64,000 nucleotides of DNA from a virus (taxonomy: Duplodnaviria; Caudoviricetes). The stretch is taken from positions 1 through 64,000 of the IMG/VR virus record IMGVR_UViG_3300015607_000582; one strand, written 5' to 3'. Both the position numbers and the translations under genes were made by a program. Below the pieces are notes generated by a model that worked only from the letters and a program-made list of their open reading frames with translations, searched no databases and was not told the DNA's origin. This document shows, one piece after another, positions 13,211-41,196 of this stretch; the first letter of the stretch is position 1; every line of letters starts with the position of its first letter.

Positions 13211-13942
13211 TCACATGAATGCCTGCGCGTCAGAGAGGTCCTGATCGCTCGATGGCACTGCATGCTCCGATGGCTCAACGGATGCACGCCGCCCCTGCAG
13301 GGAGGGCATGCTCGTCGCTGCCGTCTTCTTGACCGAAGCCTGCTTGCGCAGACCGGCCGTCCTCACTCGTGCGAGCGTCGAGAGCTGGGCATCCAGCTCC
13401 GTCTGCGTCGCGCCTTCGAGTTCGGAAACTCGGTTGTACTTGTCGTCGGCGGGGATGAGACCCAGCTCGATCTCCGTCTCCGCGAGGCGGAAGCAGGCAA
13501 GCGCGTGCTTGCGAGCCGCTGCCTTGTGGGCGTCGATGAGGTCGCCGACCTCCTGCGTCACCGGGTCGGCCTGACCCTCGGTGCCGCTCCACGTCTGCGT
13601 GCGATCACCCACGGGCTCCGCGATGGGGGCCGTGACGTCGACGGTCGTGGGCTCGTGGTCGGGGAACTTCGGGCCAGCGGTGTGCTCACTGGCGGTGACG
13701 CCGTCGGCACTTGCCGGGAAGGGCTCGTTGGTCACCGGGGCCGTCTGGCCGTCGGTGCCACTCCACGTCGAAGTGGGCTCGCCAGTGACGTTGACGTCCT
13801 TCGCCACGTCCTGATGGTCGACGCCCTCCAGCGGGTTGTCGAGAACCGCGCCGACGCCCTCGGGGTCGACGCGCTTGTCGGGGGCCGTGTCCGAACCGCC
13901 GTGGGCAGATGCACCGTCCGCGATCTTGGTCTGGTCACTCAT
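13211..13942 (-). CDS. nested in-frame scaffold protein (MSDQTKIAD...)
   Basis: internal ATG 13942 preceded by AGGAAGGA; late promoter at 14124-14134. Confidence 0.55.
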   Translation of the reverse strand: MSDQTKIADGASAHGGSDTAPDKRVDPEGVGAVLDNPLEGVDHQDVAKDVNVTGEPTSTWSGTDGQTAPVTNEPFPASADGVTASEHTAGPKFPDHEPTTVDVTAPIAEPVGDRTQTWSGTEGQADPVTQEVGDLIDAHKAAARKHALACFRLAETEIELGLIPADDKYNRVSELEGATQTELDAQLSTLARVRTAGLRKQASVKKTAATSMPSLQGRRASVEPSEHAVPSSDQDLSDAQAFM

Positions 13943-15670
13943 GTTGGTATGGGTTCCTTCCTGAGCCGAACTCTCGACCGGCCTTGTGTGGTCCTCGACG
14001 ACCTTCGCATCCTTGGGCTTGTCACTCGCACGTCGAGAAGCTGGCAACGCTGGCTTCTCTTCGACTCGTACTCGCCCGCGTGGGCCGCCGCTGTTGGCGA
14101 CCCTGCGATTGCCTGAAGTGCCTTCGCTTGTTAGAGCGGAGGAAGAGGACGCAAGTTGCGGAGGACGTACGGGATCGTTGCCGTCCTGCTCCTGAACTTC
14201 GACCGGCGCGTCGGTCTCTCGCATCTGCTGATCGACCTCCTGCGCCTTCTCCAGATCGGGGTTGTCGAAGCCCTCGGGCGGCTCGACGTACTGGCAGATG
14301 CGGCAGGAGCCATCCTCCATGCCGGGCGTTCCGCAGACCGGGCACATGCGCTCCTGACGGAGCGTGTCGACCTTCGTCGGCGCGGTCTCGGACTGGTACT
14401 GCGGCGGGTCGTTGCGGTCGGCCGTCTTGCCGAAGTCCTCGGGGATGGTGAGGTCGCCGGGCGTCGCGTCCAGAGCGGGCTCGATGCGGCCGGGCAGCTT
14501 CGGGGCTCGCGGCGCTGTCACTCCGGTCGCGGCATCGACGAATCGCTGGCGGTCGAAGCGCGGGTTGGTCGAGGTGAAGTAGTCCGCGAATCGCTGGGCC
14601 AGAGCCTCATCGGCACCGTGGTTGCGGAGAATCTCCGCGACTGCCGTGAAGTCCTTCGCCGACATCGCCATCGCGAGCTTCTCGTCACGGGCGGCGCGAC
14701 GGTCGCGGTCGACCATCTGCTTGGGCGCGTCCTGATCGTAGAAGGCGGGCATGGTCTCGACGCCGTCGCCAGTCGCAGGGCCGATGCGGCGCTGAACCTC
14801 TTCAGGCGGGGCAGGCTGGTCGCCGAACTTGGCGCGGTACTCGTCCCACTTGCCCTTGATATTCGCTGCGGCGATGCCGCCCGATGCACTCAGCATCATC
14901 GCCTCGGAGAACCACGAGGGGATCTGGTCGAGCAAGCCGCTGCCGGTCGTGGCGGCGGCGTGCTTGAGCGTGCCGGGGACGGTCAGCGCGGTCTCGTCGG
15001 CAGGCTGGACAACGCCGGACAGCTCGAAGAAGTGGAAGTCGTAGCAGTGCTCGGCGGCACGCCGCGCGGTCTTGCGCCCCGTCTTGGGATCCTCGAAGTC
15101 GAAGTACGCGCCCTTGCTGAGGATGTGGCTGCAGAACTCCTCGGGCGACGTCGCCTCGTTGGAGCAGTGCGAGCAGACGCTGCGCTCGACGTTCGCGCCC
15201 ATGCTGAAGCCGTCGATGTCGCCCTTGATGATCGCCGTGGCGAACTTCGGGAACGTCTTGGCGTCGACCTCCAGCAGCAGCTCGACCCACGTCGGCGGCT
15301 TGTGGCAGTCCCAGCACTCGTCGCTGGAGTAGTACGGGTCGAGCGAGGCGGTCTTCTCGTCGTCGCGATGGAGCTTCGCATCGACGATCACGCCTCGCGT
15401 GCGTCGCGGATCGCTGTTGTTGTGCTCCACGAAGAGCGGCTTGCCGATGAACGACCGATACGACTTGGCCAGCTCCTCGCTGGGCCACGAGTCGTGGTTG
15501 AGGTTCACCCTCGACGAGATCGCCCGGACGCGGACGTACAGGAAGTCGTCCGACGTGCGGTAGTCGTGGTCGCTCCAGTCCGCGAACTTGTCGAGGGTCG
15601 CCACGCGGTGCTTGGAGCGCGAGGGCTTGACCTCAAGGATCTCGACGTTGGCGTACTTCTTGAAGGACAT
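13211..15670 (-). CDS. prohead (capsid maturation) protease-scaffold fusion with inserted modules
   Basis: FIGKPLFVEH...FSMG...ELSGVVQPADETA clan SH-like protease with Zn-finger insert; acidic scaffold-like C-terminus. Confidence 0.8.
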   Translation of the reverse strand: MSFKKYANVEILEVKPSRSKHRVATLDKFADWSDHDYRTSDDFLYVRVRAISSRVNLNHDSWPSEELAKSYRSFIGKPLFVEHNNSDPRRTRGVIVDAKLHRDDEKTASLDPYYSSDECWDCHKPPTWVELLLEVDAKTFPKFATAIIKGDIDGFSMGANVERSVCSHCSNEATSPEEFCSHILSKGAYFDFEDPKTGRKTARRAAEHCYDFHFFELSGVVQPADETALTVPGTLKHAAATTGSGLLDQIPSWFSEAMMLSASGGIAAANIKGKWDEYRAKFGDQPAPPEEVQRRIGPATGDGVETMPAFYDQDAPKQMVDRDRRAARDEKLAMAMSAKDFTAVAEILRNHGADEALAQRFADYFTSTNPRFDRQRFVDAATGVTAPRAPKLPGRIEPALDATPGDLTIPEDFGKTADRNDPPQYQSETAPTKVDTLRQERMCPVCGTPGMEDGSCRICQYVEPPEGFDNPDLEKAQEVDQQMRETDAPVEVQEQDGNDPVRPPQLASSSSALTSEGTSGNRRVANSGGPRGRVRVEEKPALPASRRASDKPKDAKVVEDHTRPVESSAQEGTHTNMSDQTKIADGASAHGGSDTAPDKRVDPEGVGAVLDNPLEGVDHQDVAKDVNVTGEPTSTWSGTDGQTAPVTNEPFPASADGVTASEHTAGPKFPDHEPTTVDVTAPIAEPVGDRTQTWSGTEGQADPVTQEVGDLIDAHKAAARKHALACFRLAETEIELGLIPADDKYNRVSELEGATQTELDAQLSTLARVRTAGLRKQASVKKTAATSMPSLQGRRASVEPSEHAVPSSDQDLSDAQAFM
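14124..14134 (-). promoter_or_regulatory. late promoter motif (intragenic)
   Basis: CTAACAAGCGA. Confidence 0.6.
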
Positions 15671-15673
15671 GGC

Positions 15674-16426
15674 TCAGTTGGCCTTGGGGTCGGCGGTCAG
15701 CGGCACACGAGCCTCGTTCGACTCGGCGAGGGTGACGCGGTCGATGCGACCGGCCACGCGATAGCCGGGGAACGCAACCTGCGCCTCCCTGACGATCTCG
15801 CCGTCGTTGAGGACGTTGGCGTCAGCCACGCAGGCGACGAACGAGCGTCGGCCCTTCGCGGCATCTGCGTTCGCGATGACGATGTGCGAGAACACGCCGC
15901 CTCCAGCGCCGGGTGCCTTCTTCTCGACCGGCAGCGGCAGCGGCTCGTCGCCGGGCGGCGGGGGAACATCACCGCCGGGAGCGTCGAGCGGCGGAAGGCC
16001 AGCGTCGCCCTCGGGGCCGATGGGATCCTCGCCGGGAACCGGAACCTTGAGGTGCTCGGCGATGGCCTTGAGCAGATCGAAGACCTCGCCCAGCTTGGGC
16101 TCCTTGGCCTCGGGCTCACTCGGCTCGTCGGCGTCGTCCGAGTCGCCGCCGATGGGCTCGGGCTCGTCGTCCTTCGGTGCGTCATCGGCTGGCGCGTCGT
16201 CCTTGGGCTCCTCGTCCCCGCCGTCCTTGTCGAACGGGAACTCGGCGACCTTGATCGTCGCCTCCCACTGAAGGTCGGAGCGGCCGACGGCATTCGCAGC
16301 GGCGACCTTGCGCCCGCTCGCGTCCACCAGCACCATCGAGACCAGCTCGAAGCCAGCTTCCTTGATCTGCTGCTTCGCGTCAGCGGCCGTGATGTCAGCG
16401 GGCCGAGTGATCTTGCGAGTGCTCAT
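15674..16426 (-). CDS. acidic Pro-rich head-associated protein
   Basis: ATG 16426 with AGAGG RBS; D/E/P-rich middle; RKVA and IKVA motifs. Confidence 0.65.
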   Translation of the reverse strand: MSTRKITRPADITAADAKQQIKEAGFELVSMVLVDASGRKVAAANAVGRSDLQWEATIKVAEFPFDKDGGDEEPKDDAPADDAPKDDEPEPIGGDSDDADEPSEPEAKEPKLGEVFDLLKAIAEHLKVPVPGEDPIGPEGDAGLPPLDAPGGDVPPPPGDEPLPLPVEKKAPGAGGGVFSHIVIANADAAKGRRSFVACVADANVLNDGEIVREAQVAFPGYRVAGRIDRVTLAESNEARVPLTADPKAN

Positions 16427-16470
16427 TGGGTTGGTACCTCTTGAAGTTGGGTGTGGGCGCAAGCGCCGCT

Positions 16471-16481
16471 TCACTACTTAG
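16471..16481 (-). promoter_or_regulatory. late promoter motif
   Basis: CTAAGTAGTGA. Confidence 0.65.
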
Positions 16482-16492
16482 CAGGGCGGAGA

Positions 16493-17530: not shown

Positions 17531-17535
17531 TCAGC

Positions 17536-18342
17536 TCACGCCTTTGCTCGAACGAAGCAGCGGACATGCGAGAGCGGGCGGGTGCGGCGGTAGACGCCGC
17601 CGCCATTGTCCTGCGACCCGCCGTCATCTGCGGACGTGTTGCCCTCGATGCAGGTGACGGTACCGGCGTCGAGGTTGACGCGCACGACGACGCCGACGTG
17701 CTTGGCCTCGCCGCCCCCGAAGTGGAACAGGGCGAGGTCTCCCGGCTTCGCGCCAGCGCGGCTGACGAGGCGCAGGCCGTGCCGACCGCGCTTGGCATCG
17801 TCCTCGATGTAGGGGCAGTAGGCCCAGCGTCGCCCGCGCTTGAACGCCTTGAGCTTGACGCTGACGCCGAGCCAAGTGCAGAACATCGCGCACCATGGGC
17901 CGATCATTCCGTACCAAGTGCTGTACTTCACTCGGTTGGTGCCGCTCGGGCTCTCGGTGGTGCCGATCTGCGACGCGGCGAGCTTGACCATCTTCGCTCG
18001 CTTGGCCGCATTCGCCCGCTGCAGCTTGGCAAGGCGGACGCGCGCCCGACGGCGGGCCGCGAAGAGCGGGGGCAGCTTGCGAGCGCCCGGCTTGTCGATG
18101 GGGAGCAGGAACGAGTGCAGCGCGGGACCGTAGATGCCGTTGATAGCTCGCTTGGGGAAGCCGAGCCAATACTGGGCGTCGCGCACGGCCTGCTGCGTCA
18201 GCGGGCCGAACTCACCGTCGATGCTGGTCTTGAGGAAGTCCCTCTTGAGGCGGTTCGCCCCGTTGAGGATGACCTGCGCTTCCCTGACACGCTCGCCCTT
18301 GCGGTGCGGAGTTATCAGCGCGAGTGCTGGGAACTTGCTCAT
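17536..18342 (-). CDS. endolysin: peptidoglycan-binding domain plus CHAP amidase
   Basis: IDGEFGPLTQQAVRDAQ; PWCAMF...HVGVV...CIEGNTS. Confidence 0.88.
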   Translation of the reverse strand: MSKFPALALITPHRKGERVREAQVILNGANRLKRDFLKTSIDGEFGPLTQQAVRDAQYWLGFPKRAINGIYGPALHSFLLPIDKPGARKLPPLFAARRRARVRLAKLQRANAAKRAKMVKLAASQIGTTESPSGTNRVKYSTWYGMIGPWCAMFCTWLGVSVKLKAFKRGRRWAYCPYIEDDAKRGRHGLRLVSRAGAKPGDLALFHFGGGEAKHVGVVVRVNLDAGTVTCIEGNTSADDGGSQDNGGGVYRRTRPLSHVRCFVRAKA

Positions 18343-18362: not shown

Positions 18363-21300
18363 TCAGTAGAGCCAGTCGTCGGTGTTGGAGATGTCGTCCG
18401 TGTAGTGCGTCTGCGTCAGGTCGAGGTCGCCGAAGTTGCGAGCGAGCTTGCCCTCACCCTCTTCGATCAGCTCGCGGATCTCGCGGCTGGAGTAGTCGCG
18501 GCCAGCGGTCTTCGACAGCTCGGGCGCGTGCCACGGGAAGTGGTCGTCGAGCGAGGCAGTCTTGCCTTCGGCGAAGTCGCGCTCTCGACGGTCTTCCACG
18601 CACTCTTCGCACTCGTGGTCACCAGCGCACGTACACTTGCCCTCCTCATCCTCGGATCCAAAGGCGGGGGCCGCCTTGTCGCCGAAGTTGGCGAGGTTGG
18701 CCGCCTTGAAGTCAGAGAGGTTGCCGCCGTCGTCGGAGTGCTGATGCTCGGTCGGCGCGGGGACATCGTCGGCCAGATCGCCCGGCGAGCCCTCGGCGGG
18801 ACTGGCGTCGACCGGCTTGAACGTCAGCTTCTGAAGCTGCAGGTCAGCGACCGACAGAGTGTCCTGAAAGTCCATCTGGCCCGTGTGGATCGTGTAGGTG
18901 ATGTCGCTGCCCGCGATCTTGTCGATGGTCACCTTGTCCGGCACGGTGTAGTCCGGACTGGCCATCAGGTACGTCGAGCCCTCCTTGAGGGGATGGCCGC
19001 TCTCGTCCTTGATGCCCGCCTCGTTCTCGCCGTCGTCGGCCACAGCAGTCTCGGACTGGTGCGCTGGGGCACCGTGACCGAAGTCGAACTGGTCGGCGTC
19101 GTCGACATGTGCGGTGTCGCTGTCGCTGTGCTCGGCTTCCTTGACTGATGCGTAGGAGTACGGCGCGTACCCCGCAGGTGCGCCGTACGGGTCGCCGATT
19201 GGATCCATGTCGGCAGCAGGGTCTGCGCCCCCGCCCGCACTGAAGTCCATGGTCGGGTGATCCGTGCCAGTGCCGTCAGCGGGCTCCAGCTCGGTCACGG
19301 GGATCGACTCTTCGTGACCGCCCTCGAAGCGGACGGTTGCCCGACCGGGGGAGGACGGGTGGACGGTTGTCAGTTCGACGACCACGCCGACTGGGTCGTC
19401 GTGAGATGGCGTGAGCGAGCGGCGGCGAACAGCGGTTCCGATCTCGACCGAGGCCACCTTGGCCGCGACCGGCATGGGGGCACCGACTGCGCTCGGAGCC
19501 TCCGAGAGGCCGGGTGCGTACTCTGCGGTGCCGATGTCGGTGTCGTCGCCCTCCCACTCGGCGGTGGGCTCGGCGCTGAGGTCCACGTCATGCTCGGCCG
19601 GGTCGAGCGTGGTGCCAGCCAGCTCGTCTGCACGCTGCTGCTCGGCGGCCTGCTCGCGCTCCAGCTTGCGCTGCTCGTACTCCGCGTCCTTGTCGTCCCA
19701 ATACTTCTGGGTCGTCATCGCGGGCTTGAAGTTGCACTTGCCGCCGAAGTCCGGGCTCTTGCAGTAGTTCGAGCCGTAGTTCGACGGAGCGAACGAGCCG
19801 AACTGCGGCGAGCCAGCAAGCAGTGAGTGGTCGATGAGGTCGGTGTGGGCCGGACAGAGCTTCGGGCGACGCGCAGCGACCTTCTCCAGCACCTCGTCGA
19901 TGTTCACGCTGGACTCCTTCTTGTCACCCTTGTCGGAATGGTCCTTGTATCCGGGGAACACCGCCTCCAGCGCGGCGTCGACGGACTTGAAAATCTCGTC
20001 TGCTGAGTTGTCCTCGTCGCTGTCGGCGAGGACGATGATGTGATCCAAGTTCTCGCCGAACATCTTGAGGGCGGAAAGCTGCTCATCGCTCATGCCGGTC
20101 AGCTCATCGACCCAGTTGTCGGGGAGATCCTCGCCCTCCGAGGTGCCGCCCACGTCGTTGACGTCCTTCAAGAACTCAGGCGCGTCCGAATGCTGCTCCT
20201 GAAAGCCGCGTGTGCCGTCGTTCTCGGGGTGGTCATCGTCGCCCCGCATGATGAAGTCGCTCTGAGACTCCTCGTTGGACTTCGCCCCTGCGATCATCGC
20301 AGCGGGGGCCGTCGGCGTCGGGGGCGCGGGCTGAGCTGGCTGCTCGGGCTGCTGTCCGCCGCCCATGAGCATGTTGCCCATGCTGACGCCCCGCATGACA
20401 TTGCCCATGCTGCCCAGCAGGCTGCCCGATGCAGCGCCGCCAGTGGCACCGGCCGCGCCGCCTGCTGCGGCACCACCAGCCGCGCTCCCGGCGGCAGCGG
20501 CCCCTCCGCGTGCCACCAGCGGGAGCAAGAGGCGACCCGCAGCCGCAGCGAGCGGCGCGAGGAACGCCCACGCGGTCGTCTGGCGACCGCCCAGTGTCAC
20601 GGCAGGCTGCTTCAGCTCGCAGGAGGCGCACTTCGCGCCATGCGGGCCCTCCACCATCGAACCCCCGCACTCGGGGCATGCGTCGAGTGACGCATCGGCC
20701 TCGCGAAGGTCGTGCTCCCAAGAGGACTCGTGTTCGGGGAAAGCTCGCATCTCATCCTTTAGGCGCTTGGGAGCCGAGGCAAGGCTCGGGTAGTCGTGGT
20801 CGGTCTTCAGGTAGTTCTGCTTCGGCACGCGATCAGGGAACGGGCCAAGGTCGGCTCGTGGCTGCGCGTGCTCGTGCAGTTCATGCTGCTGGTAGTGGCA
20901 CTGCTCGCAGACACCATCAACGCCAACGGTGCCGTGAGCGCAGTTGGGGCACTTGGAGGCGTGACGCACGAGGTTTGCGCGCTGCTCGGGCGTGTCACGC
21001 TCGTGCCACATGGCCGGGACGACCGTTGGCTCCGCCTGTGGCTGGTTTTCGTTCTTGAGTGGTCCGCCGCTGCACGCCTTGCTGTACATGAGGCCATCCA
21101 TCTTGGAGTGATACCAGCCGTCGCCGTGGTCGGACTGCCAGATTGGTTGCTGGCAGTGCCGACAGATTGCCTCCTCCGAGCCAGAGAGCCCGGCGCTGCG
21201 CGCAAGGTCGAGCCCGCCGTTCTCCTCGGTGTCGTGGTCGTGGCGATGCAGATCGACGGGGATGACGTCGCCGACGGCGTCGGGATCCATGTCGACGGGA

Positions 21301-22756: not shown

Positions 22757-23220
22757 GAGGTTGGGCGATCAGAGTAGGTGAAGCTCGCGCGTGCAAGATC
22801 GAACTCCTTGCACTCGCCGACCTGCGATGTCCCGTCGGTGAACCGGACGAACCACCGCTTCGGCTTCAGCCCGAAGCGCATCTCGCGTCGGGAGCTGTAG
22901 ACGGCCTCGGCGAGCATCGCGGGGGCAGTGGCGACGCAACCGACGCAGAAGCCGGGCACCGGGCCCTTGAGATCCTTGCTGGAGAGCAGCGCCACTCGCG
23001 ACTTCGCGTCTCGGTCTCGCATGTCGAAGCCCACCTCCTGCACATGCAGGATCGGCGTGCCCTGACAGTTGCGCGCCTCGCGCATCCAGCAGTGCTGCTG
23101 GCGGTTCATCGCTGCGCTCGCCAGCTCGCGGTTCATGCGGTCGTGTGCGAGCTTGTGCGCCGGGGAGACTTCGACGTCGCGCGTCGCCTCCTCGGGGATG
23201 ACGAGGTGGGGCTCGCTCAT
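22753..23220 (-). CDS. hypothetical protein
   Basis: ATGA overlap with the 23217 stop; MSEPHLVIPEE... Confidence 0.6.
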   Translation of the reverse strand: MSEPHLVIPEEATRDVEVSPAHKLAHDRMNRELASAAMNRQQHCWMREARNCQGTPILHVQEVGFDMRDRDAKSRVALLSSKDLKGPVPGFCVGCVATAPAMLAEAVYSSRREMRFGLKPKRWFVRFTDGTSQVGECKEFDLARASFTYSDRPTS

Positions 23221-26200
23221 CGCATCCTCTTCATGCGTCGCCGAAGTGCGGGAGCCATGTTCTGCCGCTTGATCGTCTTCATCTCCTTGACGACCTTGGT
23301 CACCCACTCGCCGGGCTCGCCCTTCAGCGCCTCGCGCACGACCTTCTGGCTGGCACCGCACTCGATGGCGACCTTGGCGACGGAGCGCGCACCCGTGTCG
23401 GTCTTGCTGACCGTGCGGAGCTTCTCCTTCAGCTTGCGCACCTTCTCGGTGGTCTTGTAGTCGGCGGTCTTCGCGGCCCAGTGCTCGGGAAGCGTGTCGG
23501 GCGTCGAGACGGCGGGCTCGATGAGCTTCAGGTTGCGCAGGGGCTCGACGACCTTGGTGCCAGTCATAGTCTGGTCGCGGTGCCACGACGGAAGTGGTCG
23601 GTCGATGACTGCATCGAGGCCACGAAGTTCAACGATGGTGCCGGAGTAGCCCCAGCCGTATGGCGGCCCCATGCGGTCGTACCACTGTCGTCGTCGGCGG
23701 TACTCGCCCTCAGACGGGGCGATCTGCACGAGATCGCCAACCCTAAAGGCGGGCGTCGCCACTCGGCGCATGAAGTCCCACCGGCCGGTGCTCCACCCAG
23801 CGGTGTGCAGCGTGCCGATGGGAATCTCTCCGACACCCCACTCGTAGATGGCGAGCTGCCGGTTCCGCTTGCCCTCCTCCATCGCCGCGTTGAGGTCGCG
23901 GAAGTGCGCGCTGATGTCGAGGTGGACGTGCCCGTCGGGGGCGACCCATGTGCCAATGTAGTCGCCGCGCTGCAGCGCACCAGCGGCGGCGTCCCTGAAC
24001 GCCTGCAGCCGATCCTCGCTCAGCTCACTGATCTCGATGACTGCGGTGGGGTCGCGCTTGCTGACCATGTAGCCGCTGTCGAACTCGACTGGGCGCAGTG
24101 TGTTCGGGTCCAGCGTCGCGCCGCCGTTGCGGAGGATGGAGTCGATGACCGGCGACGAAGTGATGCGCCAGCCGAGGCGCGAGAGCCGCCAGTCGGGGCT
24201 GTCGAGCGACACAGGCGTCTGCTTCAACTGGCCGGGATACGTCGGGTAGTTGTTGTCGCGGTCTCGCCAGTGCGGTTGCAGGTAGCCGTCGCCGAACTGC
24301 TTGCGCTGCTGCTCGATGTCGTACTTGCGCTTGCCCTCGCGCCACGCCTCCATCTGAGCCTCGTACAGCTTGCTGTCGCGATGCGGCTGGCCACCGATGC
24401 CAACGATCTGATTCTTGGCGAAGAACGACGGCTTGGGTGGGACATGCACGTTGACGTATGGCCGGTACCGCCCCTCCTCCAGCGCACGATGATCCCTCCA
24501 TGGGGCCGCGAACCAGCCATCACTCAGCCCCCCGTACGAGTTTACGTCTGGCACTGGCATCTGCGGGGGCTCGGCGGCCCCGAGCTGACGCATGTACCGC
24601 AGCACTGCGTTGACGCCCGGAGCTTGCGCGGCACTTGGATCGGTCCAGCCCTCGGGGCTGAACAGATGGCCCTGACCGGGCGTCGGATCCTGATCGGGCG
24701 GTGCGATCTGGCGCACGGCCTCGATCATCTGCTCCCAGTCGGCCGCCCCACCCCCGCGCTCCTGCGTGAATCGGTTGTTGATCTGATCGTGGTGATGCGT
24801 GGCGGCGTAGGCAGCGTTGACGAGCTGCTCGACATCTTCCTCATCACGCTGACCGGCGCTGTACTCAGCGACCGCGTTCACGAGCAGGCGCTCCAATCCC
24901 GCGAGGTCGACGTTCACCTCACGCGGCTGCATCTCGGTGTAGATGAAGCCGCCGTTGCGATGATCCTCTTCGAGCTGGCCTTCCTGATCGTAGTCGTATT
25001 CGCTCGGGTAGCGCGTGACGTTGTCGTAGTAGCTCCGAAGCTCGTCCTCGTCGTCGCCGATGTTGTGGTCGGGGCCGTGCCGCTCGTAGTTGGGATTCTC
25101 GTAGGCAGCCTCCATCTGCTCTTCGACGGACTCCTGATTGGTCATCGAGTAGCCGCGCGACTTCAGCGCACCGAACCACTCCTGCACCATCTCGTCGTAC
25201 TCGGGGATGGGGTCACGGTTGCCCTTGCCCTGCACCTGCACGACGTCGATGTTCGGGTCGTCGATGCCGGTGATCGGACGCTCGGTCAGGTCGCCGTGCT
25301 GGCCCTTGAACTCGATGGTGACATGCGGCTCGCCCTTGGGGTCGCGCAGCGAGTAGATGGTGCTGCTGCCGTTGCGCACGTTCCAGCAGTAGCCGCCGAC
25401 GCAGTTGTGGACGACTGCGCCGTTGACGAGGTAGCTATGCACCCCCTCAACCTCAAGGTTGTAGACCGATCCGGCGTGCGACTCAGACTCGACGCTAGTG
25501 ACCTCTGTGGCGTAGTAGCCCTCCATCCATGTGTTGGAGTGCCACGCGCCGTCCTCAGCTTTCCATTCGACCTTCCACGACGGCTTGGCATTGTCGTACC
25601 CGGAAAGGCGCGTCAGTGGACGAAGGGTCGGGCGCATGCCCTGATGCACGGCGAGCATTCGTACCTGCTGGGCCAGCACCTGCGATGTAGAGGTGAAGAC
25701 GTGTCGATTCTCACCGAGCACATGGTGACCGTCGGCGGCAAGTAGCCCTTCAAGCGCAGCGTCGAGGTCCCACACGCCATCGAACAGGAAGTCAGGCAGA
25801 CGCTTTGTCGAAGAGCTTCGCCCACACGCGGCAGCAAGATCGCCAGCGAGCTTCGTCCCATAGGCGTTGACCCGTCGGTAGGTTCCATGATCCTCGATGT
25901 GAACGCTCGTCGCGCCCATCCCGCGCAGCGCCCGCTCGGCGCGCTCGTGATCGTCCTTGGGGGACATGACGATCTGGATGGCAGACGGCTTGCCCGCATT
26001 GCTCGCCCGGACAGAGCCATCGCCCACGTAGACACCGATCAGCCATGCCGTATCGGCCGATGGCGCGAAAGCCGAGGGCGCGTCTGCGCGTGTGAAATCG
26101 GTGGCTGGCGAAAGCAGGCGATCTCCCGGTCGCAGGTCTCGGGCCGGGATCCACTCCGCCTTCGTGCCGGTCGGGAATCGCTTGGCAAGGTATCGCCACT

Positions 26201-28916
26201 GCCACTTGCCAAGCTCCGCCTTCGACTTCGGGCGCAGCACGAGAATCGGATGCTCGGGCGTGCAGCGAATCGGCAGCGTCGACTTGCTATGCACGACGAC
26301 GAGTTCCCCTTCGTAGGGGCGCTCCATCACCTCTGTGACGCGATGATACTTGCCATCGTGCCCAACCACCTCGTCGCCGACGGCGATTTCCTCGATGGGC
26401 GTTGGCACCGTAGCGTTGACCAAGGTACCTGCCGGGAAGCAGTGACCCATGATGTCGCCCTCGCGGGCAAGGTCATCCGGGCCGACGCGGTCGATGCGCC
26501 AGCCGTTGGGGAACTTGTGGACGGTCGTCGAGTCGACCCAGTCCTCTTCGGCTGATGCGGCGTGCGTGTCGCGATTCCACTCCTCCATCTGCCGGAGGCC
26601 GATCTGGTTGAAGTCCGGCACCGGGCGATTCTCGCGTCGCTCCGTGTCCGCCAGCTCCGCGAACTGGTTGAGGATGTCGGAGGCGTGCGACAGGGCGTCC
26701 GAGGTAGCGAAGATCGGGTTGAGCTGGTTCTGGTGCTCTTCGCCGCGCATGCGCTTCATGGCCCACGGGATGAGCTTGTACGACTCGTCCTTGATCCCGT
26801 CGAGGAAGTGGTCGAGGCGTCGGACTGACAGCTCCAGCACTCGGTCGGCCGAGTTGCGCTCGAACAGGTCGGGCTTCTCGCGCGAGAGCCACTCGATCTG
26901 CTTCTGAATCCACTTGCGCCCCTTGGCGCGAGCCTGCTCGCGGGCGTCGGAGGCAACCTGCGCCAGAGCCTCCGCGTAGACGCGGAACGGCACGCGCGTA
27001 TGCGCGGCCGCCTCGACGATGCTCGCCTCGCGGCTCATCCACTGGCTGGCGAGCGCGGTCTGCCTCGGGGCCGGGGCCTGCAAGTCTTCCTCCACCCACT
27101 CCGGCATGAGCGCCGCCTTCTGGTCTGCGTAGATCGTGCTCGCCTGATCGGCGGTCTGGTTGTGCGCGCCGTGTGGGCCGTAGTTCACCCACGAGTTCTG
27201 TCCGCGCGTCTCGGTCGTCAGGGCGCGGCGAGCCAGCGGCGAGAACATCGCGGCGTGCTGGCGGTAGGCGTTGTCCTCGCCGTCGGCACGGAAGCCGAGC
27301 CCCTCCTTGGCGTGTCCGTACACGTCATGGATCGCCCGGAAGATGTCGTTGTAGGTGACCGGCTTGCCACCCCACCGCTCGCCAGAATCCTCCAGCAGCG
27401 GGTGGTCGTTGACCTCGGTCTCGGTGCCGTAGCCGCCCTCTTCGCCGAGCGTCGGGAAGACGTGCATGTGCTTGTTGTGTTGCAGGTCGAGCACGGCCTC
27501 GCGAGGCGAGTTCGGGTAGGGGTCAACGCCGTCCGGGTAGAAGCTGAAGCGGTAGCCAGCATCGGTCAGTGCGCGGTACTGGTCGGCGGACTCCCTCTTG
27601 AGGGCGTCGTAGGCCGCCTTGACCTCGGGGTCGTTCGGGTTGTGCTGGAGCTTGTCGTACTCCTCGGCGTAGCGTGCCGCTCGCGCCGGGTCGACTGGGA
27701 TGTACTGGGTCGGGTGCTCGCCGAGCCCGCGCTCCTCGTTGTACCGATTCGCGATGTCCTGCAGCTCGCTGTGCGAGTGGAACTGGAGCGGGCCGATGTT
27801 CGGAACCTTCACGACGCCGGGGAGCCCTTCGAGGTTGCGGCCACGGTTCGCGTCGAGGATCTGCTGGTGGTTCGCGCTCGCGTTGCGAACCATCTCCTCC
27901 GCCTCGCCGGGACGAGCCTCGGCCCAGTCGTCGGAGCGGAACGGCATGGTGTCGGGGACGGGCGGCTGCTTGTGTCGACAGTTGGGGCACAGTGCCGTCA
28001 CGCCGTCGCAGTCGGGGCAGTCGGTCGGGACGAAGCGGGGGCGGCCGTCGTCACCGACCTCGAAGTGCGATGCCTCGCGCCACTGGCCGGGAAGCTGCGG
28101 ATCGCCTGCGGCTGGCACCGGGGTCGGCGTCACGCTGACCGCGTGATGACCCTCGGCGGCCTCGGCGGGCGCAAGCCAGTCGTTCATGACCGCGACCCGT
28201 GGCGGCGAGAAGCTGCGGAAGTGCTCGTGGTGCGCCCCCTGCCCGATGATCTCGCTGAACAGGGCCTTGCGCGCCTCGGGGCTCAGGAACGGCGCGTGCG
28301 ACTGGAAGGCCATGTTCGAGCCGCGCCACGAGTAGTCCGGCGTGTTGGACTGACCGACGCCGAGGACGTTGTGCGTCACACGGAAGTTGACGACATCCTG
28401 CGGCGACCAGACCGGGTGGTCGACGTTCTCGGTCGAGACGAAGAGGCGCTTGCGGTCGCGCACATCCTTGCGCAGCTCCTCGGGCGAGGTGTACGGGCTG
28501 TGCGCGTCGACCCCGTACTGGTCGGCGTTGTGCTTCGTGATCGGGATGACCTGAATCTGGCGACGGATCTCGTCCGCCTGCGCTCGCGATTCGTCTGCCA
28601 AGGCTCGCCACGCCGGGACGGCCTTGTGATCGAAGAGCGGCAGCTTGCGGTAGGCGTCTGCGATCTGCTCGTGGTGGTCGAGCCAGTCGGTGCCCCACGA
28701 TGATCGGTAGGTTCGCATCCTGCCTCGCCTCTCCGCGAACATGACCAGATTGGCCAGCGCCATCTTGGGGGTAGAGCCGAGCCGGTCGGCCTTGTCCCCG
28801 TCAGCCCCCTGACCAGTGGCGACGAAGCCCGCGCCCTTCTCCTTGAGGCTGATGAGCTGCCACCCGGCAGCGTTCAGGCGTGCCGTGAGTTCGGTGTAGT
28901 CATGGGCAACTTCCAT
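23217..28916 (-). CDS. giant modular (polyvalent) protein: two HDxxGH-type domains, intein-containing PcfJ-like domain, SH3-like domain
   Basis: 1899 aa; FRAIHDVYGH; LAREGDIMGH|CVGGY...SLRD...PHVTIE; ATG immediately at a late promoter motif. Confidence 0.8.
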   Translation of the reverse strand: MEVAHDYTELTARLNAAGWQLISLKEKGAGFVATGQGADGDKADRLGSTPKMALANLVMFAERRGRMRTYRSSWGTDWLDHHEQIADAYRKLPLFDHKAVPAWRALADESRAQADEIRRQIQVIPITKHNADQYGVDAHSPYTSPEELRKDVRDRKRLFVSTENVDHPVWSPQDVVNFRVTHNVLGVGQSNTPDYSWRGSNMAFQSHAPFLSPEARKALFSEIIGQGAHHEHFRSFSPPRVAVMNDWLAPAEAAEGHHAVSVTPTPVPAAGDPQLPGQWREASHFEVGDDGRPRFVPTDCPDCDGVTALCPNCRHKQPPVPDTMPFRSDDWAEARPGEAEEMVRNASANHQQILDANRGRNLEGLPGVVKVPNIGPLQFHSHSELQDIANRYNEERGLGEHPTQYIPVDPARAARYAEEYDKLQHNPNDPEVKAAYDALKRESADQYRALTDAGYRFSFYPDGVDPYPNSPREAVLDLQHNKHMHVFPTLGEEGGYGTETEVNDHPLLEDSGERWGGKPVTYNDIFRAIHDVYGHAKEGLGFRADGEDNAYRQHAAMFSPLARRALTTETRGQNSWVNYGPHGAHNQTADQASTIYADQKAALMPEWVEEDLQAPAPRQTALASQWMSREASIVEAAAHTRVPFRVYAEALAQVASDAREQARAKGRKWIQKQIEWLSREKPDLFERNSADRVLELSVRRLDHFLDGIKDESYKLIPWAMKRMRGEEHQNQLNPIFATSDALSHASDILNQFAELADTERRENRPVPDFNQIGLRQMEEWNRDTHAASAEEDWVDSTTVHKFPNGWRIDRVGPDDLAREGDIMGHCFPAGTLVNATVPTPIEEIAVGDEVVGHDGKYHRVTEVMERPYEGELVVVHSKSTLPIRCTPEHPILVLRPKSKAELGKWQWRYLAKRFPTGTKAEWIPARDLRPGDRLLSPATDFTRADAPSAFAPSADTAWLIGVYVGDGSVRASNAGKPSAIQIVMSPKDDHERAERALRGMGATSVHIEDHGTYRRVNAYGTKLAGDLAAACGRSSSTKRLPDFLFDGVWDLDAALEGLLAADGHHVLGENRHVFTSTSQVLAQQVRMLAVHQGMRPTLRPLTRLSGYDNAKPSWKVEWKAEDGAWHSNTWMEGYYATEVTSVESESHAGSVYNLEVEGVHSYLVNGAVVHNCVGGYCWNVRNGSSTIYSLRDPKGEPHVTIEFKGQHGDLTERPITGIDDPNIDVVQVQGKGNRDPIPEYDEMVQEWFGALKSRGYSMTNQESVEEQMEAAYENPNYERHGPDHNIGDDEDELRSYYDNVTRYPSEYDYDQEGQLEEDHRNGGFIYTEMQPREVNVDLAGLERLLVNAVAEYSAGQRDEEDVEQLVNAAYAATHHHDQINNRFTQERGGGAADWEQMIEAVRQIAPPDQDPTPGQGHLFSPEGWTDPSAAQAPGVNAVLRYMRQLGAAEPPQMPVPDVNSYGGLSDGWFAAPWRDHRALEEGRYRPYVNVHVPPKPSFFAKNQIVGIGGQPHRDSKLYEAQMEAWREGKRKYDIEQQRKQFGDGYLQPHWRDRDNNYPTYPGQLKQTPVSLDSPDWRLSRLGWRITSSPVIDSILRNGGATLDPNTLRPVEFDSGYMVSKRDPTAVIEISELSEDRLQAFRDAAAGALQRGDYIGTWVAPDGHVHLDISAHFRDLNAAMEEGKRNRQLAIYEWGVGEIPIGTLHTAGWSTGRWDFMRRVATPAFRVGDLVQIAPSEGEYRRRRQWYDRMGPPYGWGYSGTIVELRGLDAVIDRPLPSWHRDQTMTGTKVVEPLRNLKLIEPAVSTPDTLPEHWAAKTADYKTTEKVRKLKEKLRTVSKTDTGARSVAKVAIECGASQKVVREALKGEPGEWVTKVVKEMKTIKRQNMAPALRRRMKRMR
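25404..26441 (-). mobile_element. intein with LAGLIDADG homing endonuclease (346 aa)
   Basis: starts CFPAGTLV; block B CTPEHP; WLIGVYVGDG and LEGLLAADG; ends VYNLEV...VVHN followed by Cys. Confidence 0.93.
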
Positions 28917-29284: not shown

Positions 29285-29638
29285 TCAGATGTCCCCGGCG
29301 GTCTGGAGGACACGGATGTTGAGGTAGCCCTTGGTGGGGATGATCTCCGTGACGCCGGGCGACCACGTCACCTCGAAGTCGCCGACATGCGCGCCAGCGA
29401 CGTCGGTGTCACCAGCCTGCCATGTGTACTCGACGATCCCCTGAGCGGCGTTGGTGATCGCGCAGGGCTGGTCGACGAGCACGACCGTGTCGGGGCCGTT
29501 CTCCTCCAGCCGCCGCATCGTGAACGTCACGCCGGTTGCTGTCGTCAGGTCGACGAACGTGCCGTCCGAGTTGCGCAGGCGCGCGGTGATCTTGGGCCGC
29601 AGCGAGGTGCGCTTGATGGTCACGGTGCGTGTGGTCAT
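29285..29638 (-). CDS. BppU N-terminal-like Ig domain structural protein
   Basis: VDLTTATGVTF...GIVEYTWQAGDTDVAG...FEVTW...PTKGY. Confidence 0.7.
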   Translation of the reverse strand: MTTRTVTIKRTSLRPKITARLRNSDGTFVDLTTATGVTFTMRRLEENGPDTVVLVDQPCAITNAAQGIVEYTWQAGDTDVAGAHVGDFEVTWSPGVTEIIPTKGYLNIRVLQTAGDI

Positions 29639-31287
29639 CAGACCTTCCTCGTCAGTGTCGCGGGCTCCGCGCTACGGATGACGGCGACCTCATCGTTGCG
29701 CCTCTCAACGGTTAGAGGCGAGGTGTCGCGGCGCATGTCGACGTACACCGCCCCGAGGCCGAGTGCCCGAGAAACCTCGACCGCATGGCCCGGCGTCCAT
29801 CCACGCGCCCGAGCGGCTGCCAGCGCGGCGTCTGACGAGATCGCAAACGAGACCGCCCTGCGCTTGGCGTGTCGTGTCGCGTGGGCGAACTCGCGATGCG
29901 ACGCGATGCCAAGCGCCCACCCCTTGGATCGCGTGACCCCGAGCGGGCTTTCGCTCGACACGCCCGGCCCCGAGGCGAAGCCCTTGCCCGAGCGAACAGG
30001 GAGTGCGGTCTGGCTGGTCGAGGTGAGGCCAACCGACAACAGCTTGGCTCCGGTGGCGGCGAGTGGGGCATTCGCCTCGCTCACGGAGCTTGTTGCCATG
30101 AGCTTCACGCTGGCGACGCTGAGGGCCGTGTCGACCTCCGCCTGAATACCGACGCCGTACCCCTTGGCGTAGCCAGCAGCCAGCGCCTCGGAGGATTCTA
30201 CGGCCAGCGACACGAGGTGGAACTCGCCCGAGGCTGCGCTCAGCACGGCATTCGACTCGACTGCGAGCCCAGTGGCGAGCCGCTTGAGGCGCGCGGAGGC
30301 GAGGGGCAGATCGGATTCGAGAGCCACACCCGCCGCCCGAGCCTTGCCCGCAGACGCGGCGAGAGCAGCGTCAGCGCCAGAGAGGAGCGCGACCGTCGCC
30401 CGCTTCTGCCGATTCGGCGAAAGCGGCGCGTCCGCCTCCACGGGCAGGCTGGTCTCGCGACGCTTGGCCCGAGCGGCTCCGAGGGCGGCATCTGTCTCGG
30501 CCGTGATGCCCGTCACCCAGCCGCCAGCGAGGGTCGCCCCCAAGGCGGCGTCCGACTCGGCCGCGATGCCGGTCGCGAGTCGCTTCTGGCGCGTGGCTGC
30601 GAGAGCGGTGTCCGTCTCCGCTGCGAATGCGGTGGCGCGGCGCTTGGCGCTGGTCGCAGCGAGTGCGGTGTCCGCTTCAGCGGCGATGGTGGCTGCACGC
30701 AGGTGCGCTCGCGACACGGCCAGTGCTGTATCCGTCTCGGCAGCGAACGCAACCGACCGCTGCTTGATGCGCGTCGCCGCGAGGGCGGCATCGGTCTCGA
30801 CAGCAACAGAGGTCGTCTTGCCCTGCGCGCGGGTGGGCGCAAGAGCGGTATCTGTCTCGACGGCGAGCGCAACAGCGCGCCGCTTGGCGGCCGTCGCCGA
30901 CAGCGGAGTGTCGGATTCGGCGGCGAGCGCCGCCGACCGCTGCTTGGCGCTGGTCGCCGCGAGTGCGGCAGTGCTCTCGGTCAGGATCGCAGCGGCCAGT
31001 TGCTTGGCGACTGTCGAGCCGAGCGCCAGCTCGGTCGAGGCGATGATGCCGCTCGACAGGCGCTTCGCGCTGGTCGCGGCCAGTGCCGTGTCGGACTCGG
31101 AGGCGAACGACGCACTGATGCGCTTCGAGATCAGCGCGACCGCAAGTGCTGCATCCGTCTCTGCGACGATGCCCGTCGTGATGGTCTGAGGTGTGCCACC
31201 ACCCGCAACGGGAGGGAACAAGATCCCGAATCGCAGACCAGTCCCCTGAAGGGGGCGAACGATCTCGTTTCGGAACAGGAACGCCAT
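29638..31287 (-). CDS. 20-aa repeat Ala-rich structural protein
   Basis: more than 20 tandem repeats of approx. AxETDxALAxTxxKRx. Confidence 0.7.
   Translation of the reverse strand: MAFLFRNEIVRPLQGTGLRFGILFPPVAGGGTPQTITTGIVAETDAALAVALISKRISASFASESDTALAATSAKRLSSGIIASTELALGSTVAKQLAAAILTESTAALAATSAKQRSAALAAESDTPLSATAAKRRAVALAVETDTALAPTRAQGKTTSVAVETDAALAATRIKQRSVAFAAETDTALAVSRAHLRAATIAAEADTALAATSAKRRATAFAAETDTALAATRQKRLATGIAAESDAALGATLAGGWVTGITAETDAALGAARAKRRETSLPVEADAPLSPNRQKRATVALLSGADAALAASAGKARAAGVALESDLPLASARLKRLATGLAVESNAVLSAASGEFHLVSLAVESSEALAAGYAKGYGVGIQAEVDTALSVASVKLMATSSVSEANAPLAATGAKLLSVGLTSTSQTALPVRSGKGFASGPGVSSESPLGVTRSKGWALGIASHREFAHATRHAKRRAVSFAISSDAALAAARARGWTPGHAVEVSRALGLGAVYVDMRRDTSPLTVERRNDEVAVIRSAEPATLTRKV
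29705..29715 (-). promoter_or_regulatory. late promoter motif
   Basis: CTAACCGTTGA upstream of the 29638 start. Confidence 0.55.
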
Positions 31288-37653: not shown

Positions 37654-37834
37654 GGGCCTCTACCTCTGGATCACGACTGGGGTCTCGATGCGACCAGCAA
37701 GCGGGTTCACCCTGCTCGTCTGTGTACCGCGCCTCGACGCCGCTGAAGCCGTCGTCGACGGCCCAGTGGCACGAGGGGTGGGAGCAGATCGCAACGCCCG
37801 TGAAGATGTCGGTGTGGACGGACAGGGTGCTCAC
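37646..37834 (-). CDS. small Cys/His hypothetical protein
   Basis: 62 aa filling the gap; GAAGGG RBS. Confidence 0.45.
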   Translation of the reverse strand: MSTLSVHTDIFTGVAICSHPSCHWAVDDGFSGVEARYTDEQGEPACWSHRDPSRDPEVEAHG

Positions 37835-37849
37835 CCTTCGGTGGTGCTA

Positions 37850-39715: not shown

Positions 39716-39742
39716 GCGCGTGCAGTCCTAGTCGCGGTGGGT

Positions 39743-39753
39743 TCACCACTTAG
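39743..39753 (-). promoter_or_regulatory. late promoter motif
   Basis: CTAAGTGGTGA. Confidence 0.7.
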
Positions 39754-39766
39754 GGCCTAGCTGCGC

Positions 39767-40147
39767 TCAGTACGAGTAGGACGCCCGGTCGTCCCAGACC
39801 TTCGTGTAGGTGTCGACGCCATCTGCATGCGTCACCGACGTGATGGTGCCCGACTCGAAGAGTCGCGTGATGCGCCAGACCGGGGCAGATGTGGCCGAAT
39901 CGGCTGCGGCCTCGCCGATGTACGACAGGGTGGGGCTCACCTCGTCGATCTTGACGTCGTACTTGGCCGTGGCAACAGCGACGTCGACCGGCAGGGCGGT
40001 GACGGCCAAGAGGGCCGCGTCGCGCTTTTCGAGTGGAATCCACTCCAACTCGTGGTCTACGAGCACCACGGACTCCCCATCGGGGATGAGCAGCCGGTTG
40101 GGCAGGATGTAGTCCTTGCCGGTGTTGTTGGTGACCAAGACCGGCAT
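39767..40147 (-). CDS. small structural protein
   Basis: YIGEAA...PVWRITR...VWDDRASYSY phage motif; TGATG overlap. Confidence 0.65.
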   Translation of the reverse strand: MPVLVTNNTGKDYILPNRLLIPDGESVVLVDHELEWIPLEKRDAALLAVTALPVDVAVATAKYDVKIDEVSPTLSYIGEAAADSATSAPVWRITRLFESGTITSVTHADGVDTYTKVWDDRASYSY

Positions 40148-41196
40148 CAGTCGCCCTTCACGTCCCAGCCGTCGATGGAAATCTCGACCTTGACGGTGGG
40201 GCCGTCCTGCTTTGTCGGCTCGCCCTTGTCCGACTTGCCGCCCAGCTCCTTGGTGATCGCGGCCTTGGCCTTTGCGACCAGATCCGGCTCCGCGAGACCG
40301 TCGACCTCGACCTCGCCATTGGTGACCGTGCCGCCGACGATCTCGGTGTCGTCGATGTCGTCGGTCAGCTCCTTCCCGTTCTCGGCGAGCAGGTCCTTGA
40401 GGATCTGGCGATGGCGGTTCTGGTGCGACCATTCGACCAGCTTGACCTCGCCCATGTAGTAGACGAACGACCAGTCAGGATCAGTCTCCGCAGCCACCTT
40501 GGCCCAGTGCTCGGGCAGGGTGTCAGGTGCCTCGTCCTGCCCCTTGGGCATGAGCTTGACGTAGTCGCCCTGAGTGTCGGGAATCGTGTGTCCAGAGTCG
40601 AGCTTGATGCGCAGTCGGTACTGATAGGGCTGCGGGATGACGTTGGGGATGACCTTCGGCTCCTTGAGCACCTGCTCGACGGTGCCCATCTGCTCCCGAC
40701 CCGCCGGGCCGTCGTAGATCACGCGGTCGCCTTCGCGAAAGAGCGCCCCGTCGCGGGGAGCGTATCGGCGCACGAAGTAGACGGAGTCGCCAACCCGCGC
40801 CTCGCCGCCGTAGGTGCTTGTGCCGAGGTGAATCCCCCGTGCGCTGGAGAGGTTGTGCTCCCACTCGTCGAACTCGTGGCCGGAGGTCTGATCCTCCAAG
40901 CGGTACACGATACCCAGCGGCGTCTCGACGGGGCCCGCGACGACCTTGGCAGGGCCGGTGCGCCCAGCGACGAGGTCACCGATGCGGTACTTGCCGACGA
41001 CATCGCTCTGGGCGGGAGGCTCCACGGTCTCGACGGACGTAGCCGTAGCCCAGATGTGTCCGCCACCGGGCAGGTGAAGGGCCTGACGGCCAGCCACACG
41101 CTTGCCGAGCGTGCCGAGGCGGCCGTGGTGCGGCGAGCCCGGATCGTTGACGTAGGCGGATGTGCGCTGCATGGATGAGCGGTGGAAGGTAGCCAT
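40147..41196 (-). CDS. modular protein with SH3-like domains and PDTLPEHW linker
   Basis: ATG 41196 immediately at a late promoter motif; YRIGDLV and FREGDRV modules. Confidence 0.7.
   Translation of the reverse strand: MATFHRSSMQRTSAYVNDPGSPHHGRLGTLGKRVAGRQALHLPGGGHIWATATSVETVEPPAQSDVVGKYRIGDLVAGRTGPAKVVAGPVETPLGIVYRLEDQTSGHEFDEWEHNLSSARGIHLGTSTYGGEARVGDSVYFVRRYAPRDGALFREGDRVIYDGPAGREQMGTVEQVLKEPKVIPNVIPQPYQYRLRIKLDSGHTIPDTQGDYVKLMPKGQDEAPDTLPEHWAKVAAETDPDWSFVYYMGEVKLVEWSHQNRHRQILKDLLAENGKELTDDIDDTEIVGGTVTNGEVEVDGLAEPDLVAKAKAAITKELGGKSDKGEPTKQDGPTVKVEISIDGWDVKGD

Follow-up and report, generated by a model that had tools for sequence, protein, structure and literature searches.

The stretch of DNA analysed here (the window) is the opening 64 kb of one contig of 142,928 bp, whose G+C content is 65.7% (IMG/VR record IMGVR_UViG_3300015607_000582). 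Nearly all of its genes lie on the minus strand, and PHROG searches recognised among them genes for a tail sheath, a major capsid protein (MCP), a CHAP/endolysin-like protein and a product with a head-maturation protease domain at its N-terminus; a homologue of the portal protein is encoded beyond the window (genome position 96391-98670). An earlier note had proposed that four late genes of the window encode head-packaged polyproteins, strings of small unrelated domains joined by [KR]xA[SADGE] sites and a shared linker at which the phage protease would cut them into separate effectors. We refer to their products as P0001 (819 amino acids, aa), P0002 (1133 aa), P0003 (1899 aa) and P0004 (350 aa). 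All four open reading frames (ORFs) were confirmed on the minus strand and every peptide named in the note was found in the sequence; the P0004 ORF has a GTG start, and the database copy of this protein begins 9 residues downstream. We report here that a narrower motif, [KR]-[TV]-A, is strongly over-represented in P0001, P0002 and their relatives and, as far as can be judged from sequence, most probably represents the code that directs cutting by the capsid-maturation protease, the cutting itself being predicted.

The closest annotated relatives belong to Bixzunavirus (cluster C mycobacteriophages), with 38% identity in the protease domain and about 52% in the MCP, and the order of gp96 (1276 aa), gp97 (1389 aa), gp98 and MCP in PurduePete matches the gene order found here. 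We take the window to be the head/tail end of a 143-kb actinobacterial myophage that is a distant relative of Bixzunavirus. PurduePete gp97 (L001 15899-20068) has the protease domain at its N-terminus and is annotated as hypothetical, and the corresponding 1389-aa gene is labelled 'hypothetical protein' in the 25 Bixzunavirus records listed. A megablast search for the nearest relative of the 5.7-kb P0003 gene among phage records gave no match, and a scan of viral contigs with P0001 gave no confirmed relative; the relatives described below were taken from protein collections.

The earlier note had read P0001 as cargo, which it is not, because both a structural model and an alignment show it to be the protease itself fused to a scaffold-like extension of 590 aa with a swappable insert. 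It matches phrog_18299 ('head maturation protease', E 1e-19) and phrog_2774 (E 2e-57); its sequence profiles matched no Pfam family at E up to 0.01 (including Peptidase_S77, S78 and S21), and the profile of our 30-sequence alignment of P0001 homologues (A1) found no meaningful match among PDB sequences. The clan SH-like fold that had been proposed for it is borne out by the AlphaFold2 (AF2) model, in which residues 9-222 align with T4 gp21 (5jbl_A) with a Z score of 10.0 and a root mean square deviation of 2.8 Å over 134 residues (VIA-align), and with the proteases of varicella-zoster virus, pseudorabies virus, human cytomegalovirus and Epstein-Barr virus with Z scores of 5-6; Foldseek by itself gave a weak match (E 0.04). 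H83, H101, S156 and H182 are invariant across the 30 homologues of A1. In the model the ordered protease domain (residues 10-222) is followed by a disordered segment (223-246, with predicted local distance difference test scores, pLDDT, below 50), the helical insert (247-386), a second disordered segment (387-439), a zinc ribbon (440-486), a long disordered region (487-709), a C-terminal helical, scaffold-like domain (708-774, the helix ending at residue 774) and a disordered tail (775-819). With the protease N-terminal, the helical part C-terminal, and candidate sites both after the protease and near the C-terminus (RTA↓G, the arrow marking the predicted cut), the layout is that of a protease-scaffold fusion, the scaffold role being predicted from the model. 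More than 390 homologues are found in metagenomes, many on contigs of 140-166 kb; their protease domains are 50-66% identical to that of P0001 and their C-terminal extensions are mostly unalignable. One homologue (P0006) carries an intein of about 400 aa in the conserved CPxC zinc ribbon (A1 columns about 864-1268), and Hint and intein Pfam families are also present in P0036 and P0071.

The conserved sites of P0001 stand as islands within disordered linkers or at helix ends (Table 1). At GKTA↓D, the residues K/R, T/V/I and A occur in 0.80, 0.80 and 0.97 of the 30 sequences, with a column identity of 0.15 upstream of the site and 0.71 downstream. The peptides listed in the earlier note are a mixture in this respect, as some appear chance-like or unlikely to be cut: EKLAM is not conserved, and RRAS-type matches and RKTAR fall within the protease fold. 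Residues 106-109, also within the folded domain, form a conserved [KR]-T-[AS]-[SA] stretch followed by LDPYY, in a loop apparently missing from the homologous gp19 of Bacillus phage G, and could be a self-inactivation or pseudo-substrate element.

Chance levels for the motif in this genome were set by residue shuffles of each protein. [KR]xA[SADGE] occurs 16 times in P0001 (4.3 expected, z about 6) and 12 times in P0002 (4.6 expected, z 3.6), which places these two proteins at the top of the 128 proteins of at least 100 aa in the 143-kb genome; P0003 (8 found, 8.0 expected, z 0) and P0004 (2 found, 1.1 expected) are at chance, so the proposed motif held for two of the four proteins. An unbiased scan of all two- and three-residue patterns in P0001 and P0002 returned KTA (6 against 0.62 expected) and K.A (28 against 10) as the top patterns without Cys, just below the Cys-x-x-Cys of the zinc ribbons, an excess which by itself is only marginal after multiple-test correction. 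In P0003 and P0004 it is only a Trp-linked form of the motif, W.{0,2}[KR].A[SADG], defined post hoc from data already inspected, that exceeds expectation (3 against 0.48 and 1 against 0.05), as it does in P0138, a relative of P0003 (5 against 0.55), with 5 against 6.6 expected in the remaining genome. The Glu motifs [LI]-x-E and [ASG]-x-E are not enriched in the four proteins (z -1.3 to 1.7).

The motif was also counted in the extensions of 112 P0001 homologues. [KR]TA occurs 420 times against 44 expected (9.6x) and [KR]VA 168 times against 40 (4.2x), compared with 69 against 44 (1.6x) for the reversed control AT[KR] and 11 against 40 (0.28x) for [KR]TG; [LI]xE (458 against 420, 1.1x) and [ASG]xE (1281 against 1401, 0.9x) lie close to expectation. 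The best motif is thus narrower than the one first put forward, being [KR]-[TV]-A in the protease and P0002 families and Trp-linked in proteins of the P0003/P0004 type. At [KR]-[TV]-A, G/E/D/A/S are preferred at P1' and L/R at P2', and Val at P4, Phe at P5 and Ser at P6 are enriched upstream. Since positionally conserved sites give part of the excess, we redid the count within the variable insert only, and 61 non-redundant and non-homologous inserts, conserved sites excluded, gave 25 matches against 5.4 expected (p about 8e-10), the reversed control giving 14. The excess is genuine, with local composition contributing some of it, because the reversed control is itself enriched 1.6-2.6x. That enrichment, together with the chance-level count of the generic motif in P0003, could suggest that the motif has no function of its own and merely reflects a Lys/Ala/Thr-rich linker composition or linker remnants copied by recombination. 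We think this very unlikely, given that the forward motif is 4-10x enriched and directional, that P1' and P2' show preferences of their own, that single sites are conserved where both flanks are not, that the two copies of the PDTLPEHWA linker described below differ synonymously only, and that an AT-rich Bacillus phage, whose composition is very different, has the motif too.

In four independently sampled relatives the enrichment of [KR][TV]A is confined to the protease fusion (5-9 sites against about 1 expected), the large upstream protein (6 against about 1 in two relatives, 1-2 in the two others) and the protein of about 250 aa adjoining the protease (3 against 0.4); of the tail and other genes examined in these relatives, nearly all have 0 or 1 sites, and none exceeds expectation. 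The acidic 266-aa neighbour of the protease in the window likewise has 3 [KR]VA sites against 0.4-0.5 expected, both here and in three relatives. The motif is directional and, in the comparison with tail genes that the earlier note had envisaged, specific to head-module proteins. Three tandem ORFs of roughly 1000 aa at 81.7-91.2 kb of this genome have only 3 strict sites apiece, with about 1 expected. RTA and R.AA are among the top patterns in PurduePete gp96 and gp97, and by sequence the motif recurs in Bixzunavirus and in Bacillus phage G as well as in the metagenomic relatives.

P0002 contains small zinc ribbons, a hydrophobic segment rich in Gly and Ala, beta domains read as SH3-like and, at its C-terminus, a conserved peptide. 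Although its homologues are few, each block common to them is preceded by a conserved site in their alignment (A2). These include LEKVA↓A ahead of a domain rich in Cys and His, AAKVA↓S in front of a beta-rich segment, EGKTA↓S, and SKTA↓G before the C-terminal peptide, which is the sole part of P0002 alignable with Bixzunavirus gp96 and is matched at the equivalent place in PurduePete gp96 by QRTAG↓RHYS. The SH3-like label used for parts of P0002 and P0004 was given by eye from the sequence and from beta-rich segments of the models, which match no family and no fold. Five of the 12 sites in the P0002 model have their P1 Ala 2-7 residues ahead of an ordered segment, where a rough estimate would expect about 0.8 sites, in a post hoc reading of a model whose mean pLDDT of 41 is too poor for fold searches. 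In multi-domain proteins of the head module more broadly, the motif recurs at borders between modules. The Gly/Ala-rich segment is glycine-zipper-like, is kept in the P0002 family and in Bixzunavirus gp96, and is possibly membrane-active.

P0003 is a multi-module protein (by BLASTP blocks and PHROG and Pfam matches) with a single close relative, P0138 (2068 aa, from a 35-kb contig), which has modules in common with it in a different order. The N-terminal block of residues 1-283, 87% identical between the two, ends exactly at PGQWREA↓S in P0003 and at PGEWRTA↓A in P0138; homology begins again at residue 349, two residues behind VRNA↓S, with a module (349-610) that is a stand-alone protein of 250-320 aa in other viruses. 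The module of residues 1597-1693 occupies another position in P0138, where it follows PAGWRDRHA↓S, and PDTLPEHW(A/S)AKTA↓D with the basic C-terminal tail is common to both proteins, P0138 keeping PDTLPEHWSAKTAD and the tail behind upstream modules that differ. Beyond these four common stretches, P0003 and P0138 differ throughout. A second copy of PDTLPEHWA is found in P0004; as had been noticed earlier, the two copies differ at three positions over 27 nucleotides, all of them synonymous, and there is no homology outside the peptide. An exhaustive HMMER search with P0004 found only its last ~115 residues to be conserved, forming the C-terminus of proteins of 120-1460 aa in many phages behind unrelated N-terminal parts, and in about 13 of 22 such proteins, read by eye, [KR]-x-A-[ASG] stands 2-6 residues ahead of the domain, often with Trp (SWRLA↓A, DWTRLA↓A, GWRTA↓E). 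The idea of a portable linker plus site fits these families, as modules of P0003 and P0138 have been exchanged and reordered exactly at linker sites and the P0004 family behaves likewise. The TLPE/TIPE of the linkers was ruled out as an L/I-x-E site of the T4/phiKZ type, because Glu motifs are not enriched and the position of the Glu is not fixed in the P0138 linkers.

Pfam searches with the four whole proteins and eight segments for effector or enzymatic domains returned only a PcfJ-like domain, sub-threshold and split by an intein; the other Pfam matches were to intein/Hint and LAGLIDADG families and weakly to zinc ribbons, and several modules match PHROGs of unknown function. P0003 module 332-640 had no meaningful match among PDB sequences, and a protein-atlas look-up with residues 347-630 returned unnamed viral clusters only. 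The P0003 intein (residues 826-1171, Hint plus LAGLIDADG) splits the PcfJ-like domain at GDIMGH-C and VVHN-CVGGY. The lack of an enzymatic domain in P0001, P0002 and P0004 in these searches could suggest that the sites are cut and the products are no more than scaffold or core debris, the four proteins being assembly factors and not cargo, and the block-conserved, mainly disordered P0001 extension ending in a scaffold-like helical domain and the acidic, disordered-looking 266-aa neighbour would agree with this. We consider this unlikely, as P0003 and P0138 carry different and reordered folded modules, one of which is a stand-alone gene elsewhere, and P0004-type C-terminal domains follow highly variable N-terminal parts; such diversity would be expected of conflict or cargo proteins and not of a scaffold, and head-packaged polyvalent proteins are an established theme (PMC5512222).

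The capsid protein itself may also be a substrate. The MCPs of relatives have a single R-x-A at residues 6-15, kept as R-[TKF]-A at the N-terminus in L004-L007 and PurduePete, and at RKAVAS in the window MCP a short peptide may be removed from the N-terminus. An MCP of this family also occurs in Bacillus phage G, together with gp19, a homologue of the protease (33% identical; L002 8841-9743, labelled only gp19 in RefSeq), in which five [KR][TVI]A sites (0.6 expected) flank the catalytic domain and three such sites precede it; an N-terminal RLKKTA↓L is seen in phage G gp20 and GRVALAQ in the phage G MCP. The latter protein was found by N-terminal sequencing to have 282 residues before and 255 after maturation (Hua et al. 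2017, Table 1; PMC5646251), and with 27 residues lost the mature phage G MCP therefore begins at Q28, after Ala27 in GRVALA↓Q. Placed on the sequence in this way, the datum excludes a T4-type cut after Glu at this position and fits a P1 Ala.

These positions also bear on whether the motif might be an uncut docking or targeting peptide that binds the scaffold, the inner capsid surface, the portal or a protease exosite and recruits modules to the procapsid in the manner of the T4 capsid-targeting sequence. The conserved aromatic residue or Trp and the Pro upstream (PDTLPEHW, PEDFG, PGQW) suggest an epitope longer than a protease subsite, and conservation in P0002 and P0004 is highest in the C-terminal pieces adjoining a site, which could be the real targeting elements. 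Docking nevertheless seems improbable to us, since sites are placed around the protease domain and at the start of the MCP, where autoprocessing and propeptide removal classically take place, the phage G MCP loses its N-terminus beside such a match, and many sites have no aromatic residue upstream.

Table 1. Window positions of the genes, domains and candidate cleavage sites described in the text (↓, predicted cut)
Feature	Position	Strand	Remarks
Tail sheath gene	1661-3664		PHROG search
449-aa HNH-endonuclease ORF	4913-6262	-	among tail genes
ORF with high GC3	5749-6462		overlaps HNH ORF
MCP gene	11427-12503		PHROG search
RKAVAS, MCP residues 6-11	12471-12488	-	candidate removal of short N-terminal peptide
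200-aa gene	12540-13142	-	between protease and MCP genes
P0001, 819 aa	13211-15670	-	protease plus 590-aa extension; phrog_18299, phrog_2774
Protease domain, aa 10-222	15005-15643	-	T4 gp21/herpesvirus assemblin fold
RVA↓T	15596-15607	-	candidate propeptide site; conserved [KR]-x-A-S-L before catalytic domain (A1)
Residues 106-109	15344-15355	-	conserved loop
KHA↓A	14954-14965	-	candidate site directly after protease domain, in disordered segment; IK[THK]A in homologues
KTA↓D (in GKTA↓D)	14417-14428	-	preceded by DLTIPEDFG; between variable insert and conserved zinc-ribbon block
KIA↓D (in TKIA↓D)	13916-13927	-	within long disordered region; P3/P2/P1/P1' conservation 0.80/0.90/0.87/0.90
RTA↓G (in VRTA↓G)	13352-13363	-	end of C-terminal helical domain; conservation 1.00/0.93/0.93/0.97
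KTA↓A	13316-13327	-	after RTA↓G
Acidic 266-aa protein	15674-16474	-	just upstream of protease; three [KR]VA sites
CHAP/endolysin-like protein	17536-18342		PHROG search
P0002, 1133 aa	18363-21764	-	
Gly/Ala-rich segment, residues 400-470	20355-20567	-	glycine-zipper-like
KVA↓A (in LEKVA↓A)	19872-19883	-	before conserved Cys/His-rich domain; [KH]-x-[AS]-[AV]-R-x-P-K in A2
KTA↓G (in SKTA↓G)	18501-18512	-	A1087 and G1088 invariant in A2
Conserved 45-aa C-terminal peptide	18366-18500	-	follows SKTA↓G
P0003, 1899 aa	23217-28916	-	
PGQWREA↓S linker	28068-28091	-	end of N-terminal block common to P0138
RNA↓S (in VRNA↓S)	27876-27887	-	before module 349-610
WMSREA↓S	27021-27041	-	Trp-linked site
Intein, residues 826-1171	25404-26441	-	
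PDTLPEHWAAKTA↓D linker	23460-23501	-	PDTLPEHWA copy
Conserved basic 80-aa C-terminal tail	23220-23459	-	follows linker
549-aa repeat protein	29638-31287	-	between P0003 and downstream head/neck genes
P0004, 350 aa	40147-41199	-	variable N-terminal part (SH3-like by eye), linker, conserved C-terminal domain
PDTLPEHWAKVA↓A linker	40489-40527	-	PDTLPEHWA copy, immediately before conserved domain
Conserved C-terminal domain of P0004	40150-40488	-	

Three further genes of the window deserve mention. The 200-aa gene next to the MCP is the counterpart of the Phage_cement_3 (PF23968) gene of relatives, and because of this its product is probably a capsid cement or decoration protein. The 549-aa protein consists almost entirely of tandem repeats of about 20 residues (E-[TS]-D-[TA]-A-L-A-A-T-x-A-K-[RQ]-x...) and has no PHROG match. 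The 449-aa ORF has strong HNH-endonuclease matches, overlaps an ORF with a high G+C content at third codon positions (GC3), and may be a mobile homing-endonuclease insertion.

The explanation we favour overall, and hold to be reasonably probable, is [KR]-[TV]-A-coded processing by the clan SH protease in the procapsid. Cutting behind Ala is known from the herpesvirus members of this clan, the assemblins. The protease would be made as the N-terminal domain of the 819-aa precursor, the rest of which would serve as scaffold or core, and would recognise [KR]-[TV]-A where the next residue is small or acidic, P2 being relaxed in W-x(0-2)-[KR]-x-A-[SA]. Cuts after the Ala, made inside the procapsid, would detach the protease from the extension fused to it and break this extension up, take a short peptide off the N-terminus of the capsid protein, and split P0002, P0003, P0004 and the 266-aa neighbour into separate modules. 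As each module would have its own linker and site, modules could be gained, lost or reordered without disturbing the processing, which matches the breakpoints seen between P0003 and P0138 and in the P0004 family. The data show the motif with its specificity, its conservation and its position at the borders of blocks, and the protease fold; we infer the cleavage, the bond that would be cut, the prohead location of the substrates and the role of the released pieces.

A number of points weigh against this explanation. To our knowledge, all characterised proteases of the T4 gp21 type (T4, phiKZ, SPN3US) cut after Glu. The strict motif is at chance in P0003 and P0004, where the Trp-linked variant was chosen after inspection, part of the signal in the extensions is compositional, and the P0002 site placement was likewise read from its model after the fact. 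EKTAS at residue 106 and RKTAR at residue 200 of P0001 are conserved matches inside the folded protease. The cut in the phage G MCP falls two residues downstream of the RVA match, so that the register may be RVA↓LA or RVALA↓Q. In the literature consulted on Bxz1, cluster C, phage E3, Myrna and phage G, we found no proteomic or biochemical processing data for Bixzunavirus-like phages; the phage G MCP length was the single usable datum, and neither the 2025 multi-omics study of phage G nor the paper on the Myrna capsid lists cleavage sites.

More tentatively, these proteases may form a large and widespread branch of the gp21 fold with an assemblin-like specificity, Ala at P1 and Lys/Arg at P3, for which (P-x-x-W)-[KR]-x-A would be a portable load-and-cut tag joining new modules to head-packaged polyproteins delivered to the host, in Bixzunavirus-like actinophages, hundreds of metagenomic relatives and phage G. 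Processing of many head proteins in the T4 manner and protease-scaffold fusions are already established; what appears to be new is the motif, with a basic residue at P3, Thr/Val at P2 and Ala at P1, which resembles assemblin sites more than those of T4 and phiKZ, its breadth over hundreds of uncultured phages and phage G, and the Trp-containing linker at recombination breakpoints. If the motif is indeed the code of the protease, it would provide a sequence rule to predict the capsid-bound proteins of cluster C (more than 200 sequenced genomes) and of several hundred uncultured relatives, together with their cut sites, would extend the P1-Ala specificity known from herpesvirus assemblins to the phage branch of the same clan, and would define a tag for loading foreign proteins into a mycobacteriophage head; the claims are directly testable in phages already cultured.

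Several known systems can be compared with the one described here. Polyvalent proteins are multi-domain products of late genes, proposed to be packaged in the head and thought to be processed by an associated peptidase, assemblin-like ones included (Iyer et al. 2017; PMC5512222); in the parts of that paper considered here the assemblin-like peptidase is C-terminal, in contrast to the N-terminal position in P0001, and those same parts define no junction or cleavage motif. Few of the modules found here match known effector domains, which is a further difference from polyvalent proteins. The system resembles T4 gp21 and phiKZ gp175/SPN3US gp245, which act on the scaffold core, on internal proteins that carry capsid-targeting sequences and on inner-body and ejection proteins, in the protease fold (Z 10 to 5jbl), in the place of the gene within the head module, two genes upstream from that of the capsid protein, and in a short motif recurring in many head proteins and around the protease, with large head proteins that would be cut; it differs in that the motif is [KR]-[TV]-A and not [LI]-x-E or [ASG]-x-E, in the fused extension of 590 aa and in having no Pfam S77 sequence match. 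Herpesvirus assemblins of the pUL26 type belong to the same clan, carry an N-terminal protease fused to scaffold in one chain, and have a self-release site after the protease as well as a site near the C-terminus, the consensus of their R and M sites being Ala at P1 and a small residue at P1'. Here P3 is basic and not Val/Leu, the sites are more numerous, there are variable inserts and separate multi-module substrates, and the structural match to the herpesvirus enzymes is weaker than that to T4 gp21. In P2 gpO and lambda C/Nu3 an N-terminal protease is likewise joined to a C-terminal scaffold that is cleaved off by the protease itself; the extension of P0001 is far longer and mostly disordered, and it includes a zinc ribbon and an insert that varies between lineages.

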